Made by a program: the position numbers and the translations under genes. Source: Candidatus Beckwithbacteria bacterium (GTDB taxonomy: Bacteria > Patescibacteriota > Microgenomatia > UBA1400 > CG1-02-47-37). Taken from it: a DNA stretch of 55,519 nucleotides. Shown in pieces: positions 11,555 through 55,374 of this stretch (positions are counted from its first letter, which is position 1; each line of letters starts with the position of its first letter). The DNA lies in the NCBI GenBank assembly GCA_043803225.1, contig JAZDKF010000024.1, forward strand, positions 1 to 55,519, given 5' to 3'. The notes under the pieces are model-generated. The model had not been told where the DNA came from and made no database searches. It saw only the letters and a list, made by a program, of their open reading frames with translations.

Positions 11555-11577
11555 CCTACAAGGAGTCTCCTTGTAGG
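11555..11577. repeat. REP-like palindrome R1 CCTACAAGGAG-T-CTCCTTGTAGG
   Basis: Perfect 11-bp arms with a 1-nt centre; part of 29-bp direct repeat 11551-11579 = 12425-12453; supplies LQGDSL* end of the 281-aa ORF. Confidence 0.95.
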
Positions 11578-12401
11578 ATATTTGCTTTAATTAAGCCAGC
11601 GATTTTACCCCAATTAGAGGCGGCTTTTTGGTGTTGAGGCCTAAATTCTATGGGAAGACCCTGAGCTAGAGTTTCTTTAAACACTCTTGTAAAATTTAAA
11701 GCGATCTGCAACTGCATGTTTGGATCTTTAGCCGCTTCTACATATCCAAAATTCGGTTTATCAGCTGGTTCGACTAAGTCTCCCAAATATAACTCGCTAG
11801 CTATATTGGCTTGTAAAAAATTATTAAAATGATCAAGCGTCGGTTCGTCGGCTTCGACAAGCGCCAAATGAGCCGTCATTGCGTTTTCTCTTAATTGTTT
11901 AAGTTTTTCATCTGCTTGTAGATTAGGATATCGTTCAAGAAATTGATCTAATTTGTCAGTCGATGGCAACCGAAACAAGTTAGCACCGTTGGTTTCGGCA
12001 ATATCTTTTCCAATTAATTTGGCAATATTTTTCCAGTTCCGGACCGCTTTTTTTGCAGAATGTATTTCGGCATAACTAATTGATTTTCTCAGTTGCTTTT
12101 GCTGTTCTTTTTTGGATTCTATAGCAATTTGTTTTTGCTTAGCTGGATCGCGAAATATTGCTTGCCATCGATCATATTCACTTTGATCAAAAAGCGATGA
12201 AAAATGGTGAGAGTCAGAATATAATTTTTGAAGTTCTTGTTGCCGGTAATGAGCTTCTATGAATTGATTAAACATGCTTAGGTCAACATTATTGGCTGTA
12301 TTTATTCTTTTTTTAGCTGCAATACAAGCTAAAAAGGCTCGATAAAGTTCACGGTGTTGTTTAAGAGGATCTTGGCTTTTTGGTCTCTCTAGCATTAACA
12401 T
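11556..12401 (-). CDS. Hypothetical protein (281 aa) with internal two-fold repeat, bounded by palindromes R1/R2
   Basis: Long open frame; duplicated motifs KQHRE/KQLRE, FNQFIEA/FNNFLQA, DPAKQKQIA/DPNMQLQIA, KAVRNWKNIAKLI/KAASNWGKIAGLI. Confidence 0.8.
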   Translation of the reverse strand: MLMLERPKSQDPLKQHRELYRAFLACIAAKKRINTANNVDLSMFNQFIEAHYRQQELQKLYSDSHHFSSLFDQSEYDRWQAIFRDPAKQKQIAIESKKEQQKQLRKSISYAEIHSAKKAVRNWKNIAKLIGKDIAETNGANLFRLPSTDKLDQFLERYPNLQADEKLKQLRENAMTAHLALVEADEPTLDHFNNFLQANIASELYLGDLVEPADKPNFGYVEAAKDPNMQLQIALNFTRVFKETLAQGLPIEFRPQHQKAASNWGKIAGLIKANILQGDSL

Positions 12402-12428: not shown

Positions 12429-12451
12429 CCTACAAGGAGTCTCCTTGTAGG
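12429..12451. repeat. REP-like palindrome R2 (identical to R1)
   Basis: CCTACAAGGAGTCTCCTTGTAGG with the same TTTG and AT flanks; 31 nt downstream of the ftsZ stop. Confidence 0.95.
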
Positions 12452-24386: not shown

Positions 24387-25093
24387 AAATTGATAAAGCG
24401 AATAATTTCTTTAACTAAGGCTTCGGAATGGGTAAAAGGCAAACCGTGGCTGGCAGAGGGGAAAATAATTAATTTCGAACCGCTGATCAAGCTATGGATT
24501 TTCCGGCCGTATTTTAGCGGTGTCATTCTGTCCTGGCCGCCCCAAATAAGTAAAGCCGGACAGCTGATCTGAGTAAAAGACGACTGCTGGTCTTCATTGA
24601 TGACCTGAATCAGCGTTTGCCTCATTAACGGAGAAGATTTTAAATAGTCAGATTCCCGGGCAGCCAAGTAAAGAAGTTGCCGGAACGGTTGCTGCAACGG
24701 CCGGATTGGCTTTAAAGAGAAAAACCATTTGCCGATTTTAGCAATGGGAATAAAGATTAAACGTTTTAAAGTTATTCCCGGACGAATGCCGGCAGAGTTA
24801 ATTAAAATTAACTTTGCAACCAACTGAGGATTAACAGCCGCCAGCTGGCAGGCAATCTGGCCGCCAAGCGAATGACCGATTAAAATACAGCGCTTGATTG
24901 ATTTTTTTTCAAGATACTGTTTGACCCAAACAACATAATCGCAAGTATTATATGGTTTAGTTAATAACTGATGATTAAAACCAGGCAGAGCCGGCAAATA
25001 GACTTTTATTTTTAATTTTTCTAATTGTTTTACAACCGCCTGCCAGCGGGAGAGTTGACTGTTCCATCCGTGAAGAATAACAATCGGCATCAT
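24383..25093 (-). CDS. Alpha/beta hydrolase
   Basis: ILHGW, LPGF, GHSLGG, IWG..D, H; stop overlaps the murF start (ATGA). Confidence 0.9.
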   Translation of the reverse strand: MMPIVILHGWNSQLSRWQAVVKQLEKLKIKVYLPALPGFNHQLLTKPYNTCDYVVWVKQYLEKKSIKRCILIGHSLGGQIACQLAAVNPQLVAKLILINSAGIRPGITLKRLIFIPIAKIGKWFFSLKPIRPLQQPFRQLLYLAARESDYLKSSPLMRQTLIQVINEDQQSSFTQISCPALLIWGGQDRMTPLKYGRKIHSLISGSKLIIFPSASHGLPFTHSEALVKEIIRFINL

Positions 25094-25096
25094 GAA

Positions 25097-26077
25097 TTAT
25101 TTAAGTAAACTAATGATAGCTTGAGCCAGTTTGTCCGGATCATGGCGAAGCAAGCTGCGCTTTAAGGTATCGCTTTTGGGTTTTTCAAACAGAGTTTCGG
25201 CAATTAAAGGTTTTCTGATTACCCGACGATCAGTTTTTAAATCATCAACAACTGGATATTCAGCTTCCTTGGCATAAACGTTTTTTATTTCAAGAGGAAT
25301 TGGCGAGTTATTAACTAAAATATGGTCTAAAGATTTACCTAAGTATTTTTCCAGTTCAGAAACATGGTCAGAGGCAGTAAAGTAATTAGTCTGGCTGTTT
25401 AAAGTCATCAGGTTAAGAATATAGACTAATTTAGCGGAAGACTTTTTCAAAGCTTCAACTGTACCGGTAATGACTAAGTTGGCAATAATTGAGTTGTAAA
25501 GATCACCCGGGGCAAGAATAATCAGATCGGCTGAGGCAACCGCTTTTTCAGCCTCAGGATTGATTTTGGCTCGAGGCAAGGTGTAGAGATTAGTAATTCG
25601 TTCGTTTTTTAAAAGCCGATGGGTTTCGATTTTGTGTTCGGATTTAATGGTCAAGCCGTCTGAATACTCGGCTGCTAATTTAACCAACTGGTTGGAGATC
25701 GGTAAGACCTGGCCTTTAAGCCGGAAGATCTTGGCAGCTTGGGCAATGGCTTCAGGTTCGCTTCCGGCCAGCTCTTCTAAGCCGGTTAAAATCAGATTAC
25801 CAAGATTATGGCCTTTAAGGCCCTGGCCTTTATTAAAACGGTGAAGCAGGAGTTTACGTAACAGACCGTTTTCTTTAGCTAAGGCGGCCAGGCATTGGCG
25901 CATATCCCCGACCGGTAAAAAGCCAAACTCGTCTCTTAGCCGGCCGGTGGAGCCGCCGTCATCAGTCACCGGCACAATCGCAGTCAGATCCAAAGGGTAT
26001 TCTTTTAAACCGGATAACAGGACAAAACTGCCGGTGCCGCCGCCGATAACCACCACCTTTTTAGATTGAGTTACCAT
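25097..26077 (-). CDS. yvcK: YvcK/GlmR (UDP-GlcNAc-binding, CofD-like) protein
   Basis: VVIGGGTG, DDGGSTGRLR, GD.R.C, GHNLGNL, PG.LY.SI, RHD..KLA. Confidence 0.93.
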   Translation of the reverse strand: MVTQSKKVVVIGGGTGSFVLLSGLKEYPLDLTAIVPVTDDGGSTGRLRDEFGFLPVGDMRQCLAALAKENGLLRKLLLHRFNKGQGLKGHNLGNLILTGLEELAGSEPEAIAQAAKIFRLKGQVLPISNQLVKLAAEYSDGLTIKSEHKIETHRLLKNERITNLYTLPRAKINPEAEKAVASADLIILAPGDLYNSIIANLVITGTVEALKKSSAKLVYILNLMTLNSQTNYFTASDHVSELEKYLGKSLDHILVNNSPIPLEIKNVYAKEAEYPVVDDLKTDRRVIRKPLIAETLFEKPKSDTLKRSLLRHDPDKLAQAIISLLK

Positions 26078-26085
26078 TAGTGTAT

Positions 26086-26107
26086 ATTTTACCAGATTTG
26101 CTATAAT
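26086..26107. promoter_or_regulatory. Back-to-back extended -10 promoters: TGgTAAAAT (minus, yvcK) and TGcTATAAT (plus, orphan)
   Basis: Minus TGGTAAAAT at 26086-26094, 8 nt before the yvcK ATG; plus TGCTATAAT at 26099-26107, upstream of ORF 26151. Confidence 0.6.
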
Positions 26108-26150
26108 CTGGCTTGGAAAATCAATTATTGCCTGCCGGAAAGAAGTTTGT

Positions 26151-26708
26151 GTGCTGGAAAAGTTTAAGAGTAAAATTACAAAAATAAAGAATGAATTAAA
26201 GATTAGGGGTGAGATCAGAGATCAAGCTGAAATTTTAAAAGCAATGATTCTTGAAAATAGTCGAATATCTATTTATGGTTTCTCTTTTGAACTAGATTTG
26301 ACTGATAAAATGGTGGTGGTTTATTCTAAAACCGTAAATAGGGAAAAATTTCACTTAAATTTTAAAGTAAACCCAGAACACTATTCCGGCCCGGTTATGG
26401 TTGTTTCTTTCGGCGAAGCGCTGGAATTAAAATCAGTGCCGGCAGTTTGCAAACAGGGAAATGGCTATAGTAATCGTTATGTAGATTACAGTCCTAAAGG
26501 AAATTGTCCCAGCGAATTTAATATACCCCAAGAACAATTTGAGTTTTTGAAAAAAAATGGAGTTCCGGTAATATCACCTGGAGAGAATAATCCCTACCCG
26601 GAGAATATTAATCGGGAACAAGCGATATTAGGAATTTTACAACTAATGAATGCTAAAAATCCTAATTTAGGAGAATATGTTCAAGCAGTTAAGGCAGCCG
26701 CAAGTTGA
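26151..26708 (+). CDS. Hypothetical protein (185 aa orphan) on the strand opposite the dcw cluster
   Basis: GTG-started ORF, AT-rich, own -10 box; stop lies 12 nt before palindrome R3. Confidence 0.7.
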   Translation: MLEKFKSKITKIKNELKIRGEIRDQAEILKAMILENSRISIYGFSFELDLTDKMVVVYSKTVNREKFHLNFKVNPEHYSGPVMVVSFGEALELKSVPAVCKQGNGYSNRYVDYSPKGNCPSEFNIPQEQFEFLKKNGVPVISPGENNPYPENINREQAILGILQLMNAKNPNLGEYVQAVKAAAS

Positions 26709-26714
26709 TTATTG

Positions 26715-26984
26715 AAGGAACCTGTAAGGACAGTTCCTGCAGGCAAAGTTTCCAACGGATTACGATGGATGTATTTTGAAAGGAAAATGAATTGAGTTTC
26801 AGTTTTTATCATAACCGCTATTTAGTCACCAAGGATCTAAGAAAATTAGCCATTAAATTTTCTTTTTTTGAAAAATAAATAAGTGAAAATGATTAGGCAC
26901 CAAGCAATAAGCCAGAAGAAAAGTTCCTGAGAAAAGTTTTTTAGTTTTTTCGATGGAGCAACCTACAGGGACTGTCCCTGCAGG
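26715..26984 (-). pseudogene. Decayed REP-associated tyrosine transposase (RAYT / Y1 HUH transposase) fragment
   Basis: Manual translation: LQGQSL*VAPSKKLKNFSQEL /fs/ LLAYCLVPNHFHLFIFQKK /fs/ NLMANFLRSLVTK* /deletion/ AVMIKTETQFIFLSKYIHRNPLETLPAGTVLTG. HUH block at 26883-26918; YIHRNP at 26756-26773. Confidence 0.88.
26721..26743. repeat. REP-like palindrome R3 CCTGTAAGGAC-A-GTTCCTGCAGG
   Basis: 23-nt family member with 3 arm mismatches; on the minus strand preceded by TTTG, as R1/R2 are on the plus strand. Confidence 0.8.
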
Positions 26985-26986
26985 TT
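26960..26986. repeat. REP-like palindrome R4 AACCTACAGGGAC-T-GTCCCTGCAGGTT
   Basis: 13-bp arms with 1 mismatch; overlaps the glmS stop codon. Confidence 0.9.
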
Positions 26987-28742
26987 ATTTTACAGTGACG
27001 GATTTAGCGAGGTTACGGGGCTTGTCAGGATTTAAACCGCGGCTGATAGCTAAATCATAAGCCAAAAGTTGAGCAATAACGGTAATGGGAATAGCGGTGG
27101 CCTGCTTTAAATCAGGAACTTGAAGATGAAAATCAAAAACCGGATCAGCTTGAGGTGAGATACCGATAATCAGACCGCCCCGGGCTTTCATTTCATGAGC
27201 GCTGGAGATAATATCCGAGTAAGTTTCATCCAGGGGGGCGATGACGATACAGGGAGTGCCTTTATCAATTAAGGCAATCGGTCCGTGTTTTAATTCGCCG
27301 CTGGCATAGGCTTCAGCATGAATATAACTGACTTCTTTAATTTTAAGAGCAGTTTCCAGGGCAATTGGATAGGATAAAAGCTTACCGACAACAAAAATAT
27401 GTTCCTGATCTTTGATCAGCCGGGCCAGGGATTTAATTTTTTCCCGATCTTGGCCCAAACAGAGATTTAAACTGGCTTTGGCGGCTAAGCGGATCAGATT
27501 TTGCGCCTGAACCAATTGATGATTTAAGTTAAAACCCAGCTGTAAAAGGGTTGCCAGCTTGGCAGTAAAAGCTTTGGTCGAAGCCACGGCAACTTCCTGG
27601 CCGGCTTGAAGCAGAAGTTTAAAGTCAGATTTCCGGTAAAGAGTTGAACCTAAAACATTGGTGATGCCGATAATTTTTAAATGTTGCTTTTTAGCCAAAT
27701 TAACAGCTTCAACCACATCGATCGTCTCCCCGCTTTGAGACAAGAGAGTGAAAGTCTTATTTTTATGGAGCAGTCTTTGGTATTTTTTAAACTCAGAACC
27801 GATAATTGCTTCAGCTTCCAGGCCAAAAAGATTAAATAAGTACTGGCCGAAAAGGGCGGCATAGTAAGCCGTGCCGCAGCCCAAAAGATAGTTAGACTGA
27901 CTGGCTTGATATAGTTTAGTAATCTGATCAATTGAAGCCTGAGGCAGTTGAGAAAGATTAGTCAAGATTTTCGGCTGATCGAAAATTTCTTTTTCCATAT
28001 AGTGATGAAACTTGCCTAAACGGCTTTGTTCCGCCTGCCAATCCAAGGTCATAATCTTTAGTTTTAAAGCTTTGCCGGTTTTGATAGAAAATAACTTAAC
28101 TTTATCAGCCGTGATTTGTACCATTTGGTTATCTTCCAAAAAGATTATCCGGCTGGTATGGTCTAAAAGCGCCCAAACATCAGAGGCAATAAAGTTTTGG
28201 TTTTTTCCCAGGCCGATAATTAAGGGCGAGCCGTTTTTAACGGCAATTAACTGATCGGTTTTGGCAGAAATAACGATCAGGGCATTCATACCGTTTAGCT
28301 GATTGAAAGACTGCTGTACGGCCTGAAGCAAAGGTTGCTTTTTGGTCTTTTCTTCAATTAAATGAAGAGCAACTTCAGTATCGGTTTCCGATAAAAATTT
28401 ATGCTTTGCAATTAAAGTTTCTTTGATCGTGCGAAAGTTTTCGACGATGCCGTTATGAACCAAGGATAAAGTTTTGGTACAGTCCAGATGAGGATGGGCA
28501 TTACCGACAGTGACGCCGCCGTGAGTCGCCCAGCGGGTATGACCCAGGCCGATCGCCGAAACCGGCAGCTTGGTCTTGGCTTCACCGATCTTACCCACAT
28601 GGCGTTCCCGAACCAGGCGCTGGCCTTGTTTAACCGTAATTCCCCAGGAGTCATAACCGCGGTATTCAAGTTTTTTCAAGCCGGAGAGGACAGTTTGCGC
28701 TGCCTGTTTCTTATCACCGATAACGCCAAAAATTCCACACAT
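26985..28742 (-). CDS. glmS: Glutamine--fructose-6-phosphate aminotransferase
   Basis: MCGI, LEYRGYDS, GHTRWATHG, SQSGET, VASTKAF, ELKHGP, PRNLAKSVTV. Confidence 0.99.
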   Translation of the reverse strand: MCGIFGVIGDKKQAAQTVLSGLKKLEYRGYDSWGITVKQGQRLVRERHVGKIGEAKTKLPVSAIGLGHTRWATHGGVTVGNAHPHLDCTKTLSLVHNGIVENFRTIKETLIAKHKFLSETDTEVALHLIEEKTKKQPLLQAVQQSFNQLNGMNALIVISAKTDQLIAVKNGSPLIIGLGKNQNFIASDVWALLDHTSRIIFLEDNQMVQITADKVKLFSIKTGKALKLKIMTLDWQAEQSRLGKFHHYMEKEIFDQPKILTNLSQLPQASIDQITKLYQASQSNYLLGCGTAYYAALFGQYLFNLFGLEAEAIIGSEFKKYQRLLHKNKTFTLLSQSGETIDVVEAVNLAKKQHLKIIGITNVLGSTLYRKSDFKLLLQAGQEVAVASTKAFTAKLATLLQLGFNLNHQLVQAQNLIRLAAKASLNLCLGQDREKIKSLARLIKDQEHIFVVGKLLSYPIALETALKIKEVSYIHAEAYASGELKHGPIALIDKGTPCIVIAPLDETYSDIISSAHEMKARGGLIIGISPQADPVFDFHLQVPDLKQATAIPITVIAQLLAYDLAISRGLNPDKPRNLAKSVTVK

Positions 28743-34526: not shown

Positions 34527-34549
34527 CCTACGAGGAGAGTCCTTGTAGG
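34527..34549. repeat. REP-like palindrome R5 CCTACGAGGAG-A-GTCCTTGTAGG
   Basis: Reverse complement differs from R1 at only 2 of 23 nt; lies in the ftsI-murE gap; stem extendable via TCTAAC/GTTAGA. Confidence 0.9.
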
Positions 34550-54326: not shown

Positions 54327-55374
54327 TTAATACCTCCAAGATCGTGTTCGCTGATTTTTCCCAAGAAAAGTTTTTAGCTTTTTGTCGGGCAGCAGCTAAT
54401 TGTTGTTTTTTAGTCTCAGTTGACAAAGATAATAGCTCTATTATACCTTTTTCGATGGCTGGAGCGTTAAATGGCGGTTCAATGTACAGACCGCAGTCGC
54501 CCACAATCTCCGGCAAAGAGGAGTTGCGGCTGACTAGAACCGGCGTTCCTAAAGCCATTGCCTGAACCACGGGAATACCAAAACCTTCATATAAACTGGG
54601 TAAAATTAATCCTAAACTATTTTTAATTAAGGTAGGGAGTTTATCCTGAGGCACAAAACCAAGATACTGAACATTTTTTAGCGGCCGTGGCTGGTAAAGC
54701 CAGCCGGTTTTCCCGGCAATAACTAACTTAATCCCTGCGAGGTCGGACCTCGCAGACTGGCAAAAGACCTCAATTAAGGCATTAAGATTTTTACGAGGTT
54801 GGAGTGTGCCTACATAAAGCAAATATTTACCTTTAACTGGGCTTTTGCCAGTTACTTTGAGCCGGTCAACCCCGGGATAAACAACACTTATTTTATTTTC
54901 CGGAATTTGGTAACTGGCCACAAGGTCATTTTTGGTAGCCTGGGAAATAGCAAAAATGTGTTTGGCTTGTTTAGTGGAATAGGCAGTCCACAATTTCAAT
55001 TGCCATAGATCAGAGCGCCGAAAAGTTTGAGGAAACTTTAAAAAAGCCAAGTCCATAATGCAAACCAAAGTCGGTACAGGAGAAAATCGTGGCGCATAGT
55101 GACCTAAAGTCAGAAAAAGATCGGGCTTAGGCTTTTGGAAGTATAATTGTAAGGGTAAACGCCATTGGGTCCATAAAAACTTAGGGAGTACAATTTGATA
55201 CTGCCAACGGAGTGAAGCCGAAGGCATATCCGATAATGGAGCAGTTTTTAAATATATTCTATAAGAGTTGGTTTTATCCAGACGAGATAATTGAGTTAAA
55301 ATTTGGAAAGCATACTGATTACTGCCGACCCGGTTAACCACATTAGCTTCGTTAGCATCAATTCCGATTAACAC
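54310..55374 (-). CDS. Glycosyltransferase family 4 carrying in-frame palindrome R6
   Basis: GTG start with SD AGGAGG; IGID, VGTLQPRKN, PSLYEGFGIP, FSWEKSA. Confidence 0.93.
   Translation of the reverse strand: MLIGIDANEANVVNRVGSNQYAFQILTQLSRLDKTNSYRIYLKTAPLSDMPSASLRWQYQIVLPKFLWTQWRLPLQLYFQKPKPDLFLTLGHYAPRFSPVPTLVCIMDLAFLKFPQTFRRSDLWQLKLWTAYSTKQAKHIFAISQATKNDLVASYQIPENKISVVYPGVDRLKVTGKSPVKGKYLLYVGTLQPRKNLNALIEVFCQSARSDLAGIKLVIAGKTGWLYQPRPLKNVQYLGFVPQDKLPTLIKNSLGLILPSLYEGFGIPVVQAMALGTPVLVSRNSSLPEIVGDCGLYIEPPFNAPAIEKGIIELLSLSTETKKQQLAAARQKAKNFSWEKSANTILEVLNELTL
54735..54755. repeat. REP-like palindrome R6 CTGCGAGGTC-G-GACCTCGCAG (intragenic)
   Basis: Perfect 10-bp arms with a 1-nt centre; same geometry as R1 with 4 compensated pair changes; encodes (S)ARSDLA(G). 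Confidence 0.7.

Follow-up and report, generated by a model that had tools for sequence, protein, structure and literature searches.

The convergent gap behind glmS in a Candidatus Beckwithbacteria genome raises two questions. A first-pass annotation had seen in it a hidden RAYT pseudogene (REP-associated Y1 HUH transposase) delimited by two palindromes, R4 and R3, apparently within its own reading frame. What is this piece of DNA? And does the transposase carry its target hairpins inside its coding sequence, or was only the palindrome-bounded part moved or retained? The window analyzed, i.e., the whole stretch of 55,519 nucleotides, comes from a metagenome assembly (908 kb, 58 contigs, 41.6% G+C, rated 97.8% complete), where it is contig C24; close homologues of proteins of this genome are assigned to Candidatus Beckwithbacteria or to the Patescibacteria group. 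It is argued below that the piece is, very probably, the dead central part of a RAYT gene, left in place by a rearrangement broken at a first intragenic REP (S1) and by a loss beyond a second one (S2), R4 and R3 being these intragenic REPs.

Identification of the remnant

Three minus-strand RAYT frames are found in the gap between the open reading frame 26151-26708 and glmS, i.e., LQGQSL*VAPSKKLKNFSQEL, LLAYCLVPNHFHLFIF and LSKYIHRNPLETLPAGTVLTG. They constitute a decayed, non-functional remnant corresponding to aa ~49-167 of the intact homologues (central part, from HUH to Tyr). Both these frames and their two catalytic motifs are exactly those announced by the first-pass annotation. The residues H84, H86 and Y144 are invariant in an alignment of 40 RAYT homologues, and in the remnant the HUH motif precedes the catalytic Tyr, as is usual in RAYTs. 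The features of the locus are collected in Table 1.

Table 1. Features of the window at the glmS locus
Feature	Position	Strand	Basis or remark
Whole RAYT remnant	26700-26986	−	tblastn, DNA identity to the RAYT of G011:C1, family HMM pieces; alignment for the 3' limit
R4 = intragenic REP site S1, reads LQGQSL*V	26960-26986 (LQGQSL*V at 26960-26983)	−	overlaps the glmS stop
HUH motif HFH, within LLAYCLVPNHFHLFIF (26871-26918)	26883-26891	−	H84 and H86 of the alignment
Junction of the 61-nt deletion	26818-26819	−	profile positions ~106-126 lost; TAG made at the junction
Catalytic-Tyr motif YIHRNP	26756-26773	−	Y144 of the alignment
R3 = intragenic REP site S2, reads LPAGTVLTG	26719-26745 (LPAGTVLTG at 26720-26746)	−	degenerate palindrome
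RAYT-derived ~21 nt past R3, relic of G-YKYSSY codons, 2-nt insertion	26700-26718	−	alignment; overlaps the stop codon of the convergent open reading frame
glmS (SIS + GATase domains)	26985-28742	−	its stop is directly followed by R4
185-aa open reading frame	26151-26708	+	occupies the place of the lost N- and C-terminal parts of the RAYT
CofD/YvcK-like gene	25097-26077	−	conserved left flank of the locus

With the intact RAYTs of the same genome as queries, tblastn gives a match at 26989-26720 (E = 7e-10 for gene D, aa 49-161, and 1e-10 for gene A). A family HMM, built from the alignment of the 40 homologues, was run on all six-frame pieces of the whole window, unjoined. Four consecutive pieces are found in the right order at 26684-26984 (minus strand), covering profile positions 58-159 minus 106-126, with E values of 7.5e-11 and 1.2e-8 among them. 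By this search there is no other convincing RAYT piece in the whole window (remaining matches E >1). A DNA search of 14 family genomes gives as closest intact relative the RAYT gene of G011:C1 (219 aa, PF01797 44.8 bits), with 86% identity over 26819-26986 and 88% over 26721-26818. The claim of a Y1/RAYT pseudogene is borne out by these searches.

Relative to the G011:C1 gene, 63 nt are missing in all: one near 26919/26918, one near 26870/26869 and 61 at 26819/26818 (nucleotides 1671-1731 of the G011:C1 locus, L092, absent from the window copy). Two in-frame TAG codons are present, one inside R4 (26963-26965) and the other at the junction of the 61-nt deletion. All the damage initially described (two frameshifts, two TAGs and a deletion near 26818) is recovered in this alignment. 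The fragment was also said to be almost exactly the piece from R4 to R3: this holds at the R4 end and needs a small correction at the other one, where homology continues ~21 nt past R3 to ~26700 and ends in the last codons and the stop of the 185-aa open reading frame.

No Pfam family matches this open reading frame, nor was a homologue found among 13 genomes of the same family; in the related genome the RAYT lies at this place, and the stop codon of the frame falls within RAYT-derived sequence. Rfam gives a single chance-level match on 26000-27600, outside the remnant, and, with regard to the remnant, a promoter/terminator scan does not rise above shuffles. Independent read support comes from contigs of two public runs, perhaps of the source sample, which at the remnant cover only 26768-26927 (and 27239-27400 further on).

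R4 and R3 as palindromes

R4 has 10 of 11 pairs in its 23-nt core, and its single-stranded DNA fold reaches −8.8 kcal/mol on the plus strand and −10.5 kcal/mol on the minus strand (z of −4.0 and −4.5, respectively). The core of R3 (26721-26743) has ~8 of 11 pairs, as read by eye, and a weak fold (z about −2). The spacer between them is made of 218 nt of transposase coding sequence. R4 and R3 match better as an inverted pair (84%) than as a direct pair (77%). R4 has T at the variable position of CCTTG[N]AGG, leading to the TAG that it contains.

Four palindromes per gene in intact homologues

The genome contains four intact PF01797 genes. Gene D (C47:23328-23966) carries the palindrome CCTACAAGGAGaCTCCTTGTAGG four times: (i) just 5' of the start; (ii) at S1, aa 50-58 (DLQGDSLKV); (iii) at S2, aa 154-161 (PTRSLLVG); (iv) across the stop. 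Gene A (C47:48129-48779) contains another version, GGGTCGGACC, three times. In gene B, a more distant RAYT, a palindrome particular to this gene is found upstream and at aa ~176-179. A fifth, more distant RAYT-like sequence (G000:C30:6982-7461, L148; 35% identity to D over aa 7-173) lies near a contig end.

Homologues were collected from 61 related genomes (38 with a match, including all 13 same-family genomes) and from a species-representative collection (56 loci, including Beckwith-, Collier- and Gottesmanbacteria). Once duplicates had been removed, together with 17 loci that were partial or short, 63 full-length RAYT genes were left. Palindromes were counted, with a threshold of at least 9 of 11 pairs, in the 39 non-redundant RAYTs that are at least 49% identical to D. 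The 5' flank (F5) has the palindrome in 34 of the 39, S1 (LQGxSLKV) in 29, S2 (LPxxxxLxG) in 32 and the 3' flank (F3) in 29; both S1 and S2 have it in 25 genes, and S1 or S2 in 36. As a control, only 14 of 159 other 75-nt coding segments of the same genes reach this threshold. In this Microgenomates clade (Beckwith-, Collier- and Gottesmanbacteria), the cognate REP of a RAYT gene is present four times, i.e., in both flanks, at S1 (aa ~50) and at S2 (aa ~154), and R4 and R3 are the two intragenic REP copies and not accidents of decay.

The supposition that the transposase may carry target hairpins inside its coding sequence is directly supported by these counts. For LQG.SL.V and P.G..L.G an inspection of the intact homologues had been proposed; it gives LQGxSLKV and LPxxxxLxG, written in palindromic DNA, at the two positions, and homology in the window does not run far past both palindromes.

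The palindrome varies between RAYT genes, with inner stems such as GGAGACTCC, GGATTATCC, GGGCCAGGCCC and GGTCGGACC, and its copies agree within a gene. Between an internal copy and the flank of its own gene, the median difference is 0 of 23 nt (n = 57; the one value of 21 is a mis-centred F3 call, L052); between it and the flanks of other genes, the median is 6 of 23 nt (n = 1995). In 46 of 57 comparisons no other flank is nearer than the own one. Gene conversion, the action of the RAYT or selection may keep the internal copies similar to the flanking ones.

Internal palindromes are rare in the 24 more distant RAYTs. CPR genes with one internal site are L021 (S1), L030 and L027 (S2), and the Bacillota and Bacteroidota relatives among the distant RAYTs examined have neither the S1 nor the S2 palindrome. 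A comparison of the N, core and C segments in 741 RAYT pairs, with regard to module shuffling at S1/S2, gives simply a less conserved C segment.

Covariation and coding constraint

The S1 alignment (29 rows) has 94.0% of its cells paired, with 8 of 11 pairs changed on both sides; the corresponding values for S2 (33 rows) are 92.6% and 9 of 11. The covariation score is reached by 0 of 500 shuffles for each site. In all, the observed values are reached by 0 of 500 shuffles on four of the five measures, the fifth one (further pair types) being reached by 89 of 500 for S1 and 2 of 500 for S2. With slid partners, pairing falls to 30-54%. It must be noticed that the percentage paired is partly built in, since the rows of the alignments had already been chosen as palindromic; what is informative in these data is how many types of pair occur although the coding positions are fixed.

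S1 is read in one phase in 28 of 28 cases and S2 in 26 of 32. The T that turns CCTTG[N]AGG into an in-frame TAG is found in 0 of 28 cases at S1, and in 11 of 33, 8 of 32 and 13 of 27 cases at the other three sites. The phase and the missing T show that coding and pairing constraints act together on S1.

REPs in other genes

The 0.9-Mb genome contains 35 palindromes of this REP family, of 23-27 nt (37 with a slightly modified filter). Three inner-stem types can be distinguished, and for that of the window (GGAC.G.CC) the assembly contains no intact RAYT. Of the 35 palindromes, 20 are in-frame and well within open reading frames: (i) nine in Pfam-supported genes (TsaD, Fpg, the DALR domain of ArgRS, LeuRS, DprA, MiaA, MnmA, a cytidylyltransferase-like protein and, at the cut-off, an M29-like peptidase); (ii) five in open reading frames of 173-267 aa; (iii) three in one open reading frame of 527 aa without Pfam family; (iv) three in the RAYTs A and D. 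These REPs are read as xLQGxSLKV or PTRxLLVG, i.e., the same two readings as S1 and S2. The 527-aa frame (G000:C27:60315-61895, L109) has the readings PTRTDLVG, TSRTVLVG and PTRRDLVG, two of the REPs being ~40 nt apart.

The gene tsaD was compared in 11 family genomes (L114-L124). The same three loops of TsaD hold different REP-coded inserts of varied length, or none, and the open frames extend from 343 to 479 aa, a difference due to REP-coded inserts of varying type and length. Settling in permissive loops is, as these inserts show, a general habit of the REPs here.

The window contains other REPs. Two perfect copies of CCTACAAGGAGTCTCCTTGTAGG (11555-11577 and 12429-12451) bracket a 281-aa open reading frame, 11556-12401 (minus strand), which lies immediately downstream of an FtsZ-like gene (named from its sequence); the first copy supplies the last residues of this frame (LQGDSL) and its TAG stop. 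Further copies, with 9 and 10 of 11 pairs, are found at 34527-34549 and 54734-54756.

This habit weakens any claim of a necessary function of S1 and S2, and the internal RAYT copies need no special function, since REPs are in-frame in many other genes. The internal palindromes could be neutral passengers: REPs would settle in any permissive surface loop, the RAYT gene being the nearest target, and gene conversion would keep the copies alike. Quite possibly this is so, and it concerns only the functional part of the preferred reading. It agrees with the 20 in-frame REPs (nine of them in Pfam-supported housekeeping genes), with the variable inserts of TsaD, with the loss of S1 in some RAYTs (e.g., A, L041, L051) and with the AlphaFold model of D, where S1 lies in a loop with pLDDT <50 and S2 directly after the helix of the catalytic Tyr, both in low-confidence loops. 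On the contrary, S1 and S2 differ from the TsaD inserts by their fixed positions, by their nearly constant phase, by the lack of length variation in most rows of the RAYT alignment, and by their persistence in three candidate lineages, down to ~50% protein identity.

The CofD/YvcK-like-glmS locus

The intact RAYT of G011:C1 lies between glmS and the orthologue of the CofD/YvcK-like gene (73% identity, compared with window 25023-26062), and the REP of its 3' flank comes immediately after the glmS stop. The same arrangement and the same REP type are found in G012, also with an intact RAYT. Downstream sequence of 1392 nt or more is available for 11 glmS loci, of which three have a RAYT there (window, G011 and G012) and eight have none; in G003, from the genus of G011, the site is empty. 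The core in the window is inverted with regard to the conserved flanks, i.e., opposite to the intact copies of G011 and G012, and its S1 end adjoins the glmS stop exactly where G011 has the 3' flank REP.

A direct duplication of ~22 nt of the glmS 3' end (KSVTVK and the stop) brackets the RAYT cassette in G011:C1 (L092 1291-1312 and 2037-2058). The outer duplicate continues into the sequence that directly follows glmS at the empty site of G003, and the duplication is present only in G011 among the fetched loci. A target duplication is not expected of a Y1 transposase.

Since the closest intact copy is at the same locus in a related genome, the piece in the window is most likely an in-place remnant rather than a transposed fragment. 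The position of its S1 end, that of the 3' flank REP of G011, places the break on the glmS side inside a palindrome. The break on the R3 side is ~21 nt beyond the palindrome, so that at most one end of the remnant is REP-mediated. An inversion between S1 and S2 alone would put N-terminal antisense sequence after R3; it is excluded, because C-terminal sense codons are found there.

The starting state would be an intact RAYT at this locus, as in G011. The palindromes are direct and inverted repeats of each other at once. By an inversion of the segment from S1 to the 3' flank REP, with a break inside the S1 palindrome, the core would come to lie inverted directly after the glmS stop. A deletion or replacement from ~21 nt beyond S2 would then have removed the rest and joined the lineage-specific open reading frame, and the two 1-nt deletions, the 61-nt deletion and the two TAGs would represent later point decay. 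This two-step route is the shortest one from a G011-like state, and the order of its events is presumed.

The last 150 nt of glmS are 82% identical to G011, 78% to G003 and 68-75% to the others, without a sharp step; a recombination tract at the glmS end, as a sign of transfer, was therefore rejected. Compared with the glmS end, the RAYT core is somewhat closer to G011 (86-88%), and, given this difference, separate site-directed insertions or a transfer at the locus could conceivably have occurred.

Very unlikely is a mobilised non-autonomous element, i.e., intragenic REPs serving as REPIN arms, with the RAYT having excised its own core and inserted it after glmS. In its favor, the piece has a REP at either end, the two matching better in inverted than in direct orientation, and it fills a gap between convergent genes, where REPs are usually found, in an orientation opposite to that of the intact copies at the same locus. 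However, (i) intact copies with the same REP type occupy this locus in G011 and G012, which also speaks against the initial suggestion that the palindrome-bounded part was moved; (ii) homology runs ~21 nt past R3 into C-terminal codons; (iii) apart from the piece itself, the genome contains no full-length match; (iv) in the 13 same-family genomes, the long matches (>~90 nt) lie in RAYT genes and the short ones (25-50 nt) consist of the palindrome only, as checked at some of these places; (v) the public contigs, with their sparse cover, have no joints of such an element. The other suggestion, that only the palindrome-bounded part was retained, is supported except for the ~21 nt beyond R3.

The chance that plain intergenic DNA with two terminator-like hairpins merely resembles a RAYT is practically nil, given the 86-88% DNA identity over ~270 nt to an intact RAYT gene, the four profile pieces in the right order and the absence of an Rfam family matching the region, although one weak terminator-like pattern overlaps R4 on the plus strand.

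Other truncated RAYTs were found besides the in-place remnant of the window. The copy G011:C4 retains aa 49-210, the S1 palindrome being the first homologous sequence after an unrelated gene, and G000:C12:175383-175549 retains aa 1-53 and ends in the S1 palindrome. Truncation at S1 is recurrent, as these two further copies show. A truncated RAYT of G003:C6 (L141) has a run of N at the position of S1 and was left out of this comparison.

Family assignment and comparison with known systems

The intact homologues have 31.8 and 44.8 bits with PF01797 (Y1_Tnp), for a cut-off of 23. Their best NCBIfam match is REP_Tyr_transpos (NF047646), at 41-44 bits, i.e., below the equivalog cut-off of 80, and they are distant relatives of the curated set of that model. 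The IS200 model of NCBIfam reaches only E = 0.0086, for one protein. The fold search with the AlphaFold model of D (pLDDT 80.4) gives 4er8_A, the E. coli RAYT-REP hairpin complex, as best match (E = 2.7e-7, TM 0.52/0.64), followed by the TnpA of IS608 and ISDra2. A PDB sequence search gives nothing for the single protein, and only weak ISDra2 matches (E = 0.08) for the profile.

The likeness to IS200/IS605 elements consists of a single-strand Y1 transposase, of hairpins at both ends and of the fold matches to ISDra2 and IS608 TnpA. These elements differ by their distinct left and right ends (here the same palindrome is found at both ends), and the best family of the present proteins, which are longer (210-265 aa), is RAYT. 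The usual size of IS200/IS605 TnpA is about 130-155 aa.

The E. coli TnpA-REP/REP-BIME system (PDB 4ER8) shares the Y1 HUH fold, the HUH and Tyr motifs and the flanking dispersed palindromes, which are repeated 35-37 times across the genome studied here. The differences are the several RAYT copies per genome here, the palindrome present also twice in-frame, and a GTAG that lies within the stem and varies (GTAG, GCAG, GAAG). Copy number amounts to four intact genes plus remnants in this genome, and up to 19 matches in one related genome.

According to the available text of Bertels and Rainey (PMC5581495), REPINs are extragenic and flank mostly single-copy RAYTs. The Pseudomonas REPIN-RAYT system as described there resembles the present one in that each RAYT has its own REP type and a REP family may persist when its RAYT is lost: of the RAYT of the GGAC.G.CC type, only the dead gene is left in the assembly. 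It differs in that the REPs here are mostly single units, more than half of them in open reading frames, with many RAYT matches per genome. The doublet unit, which would be expected in several copies for a REPIN, is found here in a single copy in the genome, and REPs are far from strictly extragenic.

The available text of Di Nocera et al. (2013, PMC3733652) reports, for GTAG/CGTC REPs, intragenic copies in other genes and REPs overlapping the ends of RAYT open reading frames. These intragenic REPs, as well as the Rickettsia palindromic elements treated in the same source, are comparable to those found here: in-frame in housekeeping genes, many of them of nucleic-acid metabolism, and in loops or linkers. 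In the portions of that paper at hand, REPs overlap RAYT ends, without conserved internal sites, whereas here two in-frame copies covary with the flanks. More generally, REPs and REPINs are placed beside RAYT genes in the accessible parts of PMC3733652, PMC5581495 and PMC6006769. Full-text literature searches gave, within the texts available, no conserved in-frame REPs inside a RAYT gene (the supplementary REP/REPtron lists of PMC3733652 might bear on this point) and nothing on RAYTs in Patescibacteria.

Significance

The pseudogene itself is ordinary; what is new is a RAYT/REP variant with the target hairpins in its own reading frame. The internal palindromes may be bound or cut by the enzyme, or may be substrates of recombination. 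A bolder possibility, judged unlikely, is that the in-frame palindromes are working cis-sites, the enzyme binding or cutting hairpins in its own gene or mRNA, so that the reading frame itself would be a substrate. If true, this would mean self-limitation, or a REP-to-REP inversion/deletion switch turning the RAYT gene off, a fossil of which would be the truncated copy that lies inverted behind glmS.

A protein together with four natural substrates in one 0.7-kb unit, found in a large clade of RAYTs, offers a direct handle, in vitro, on how RAYTs spread REPs and on why both stay together for long. REPs may act as breakpoints that kill the very gene that spreads them. Palindromes written into genes also cause RAYT remnants to be easily missed by gene callers. 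Finally, in the very small CPR genomes, palindromes in TsaD, LeuRS, ArgRS, Fpg and DprA are a source of protein length variation.
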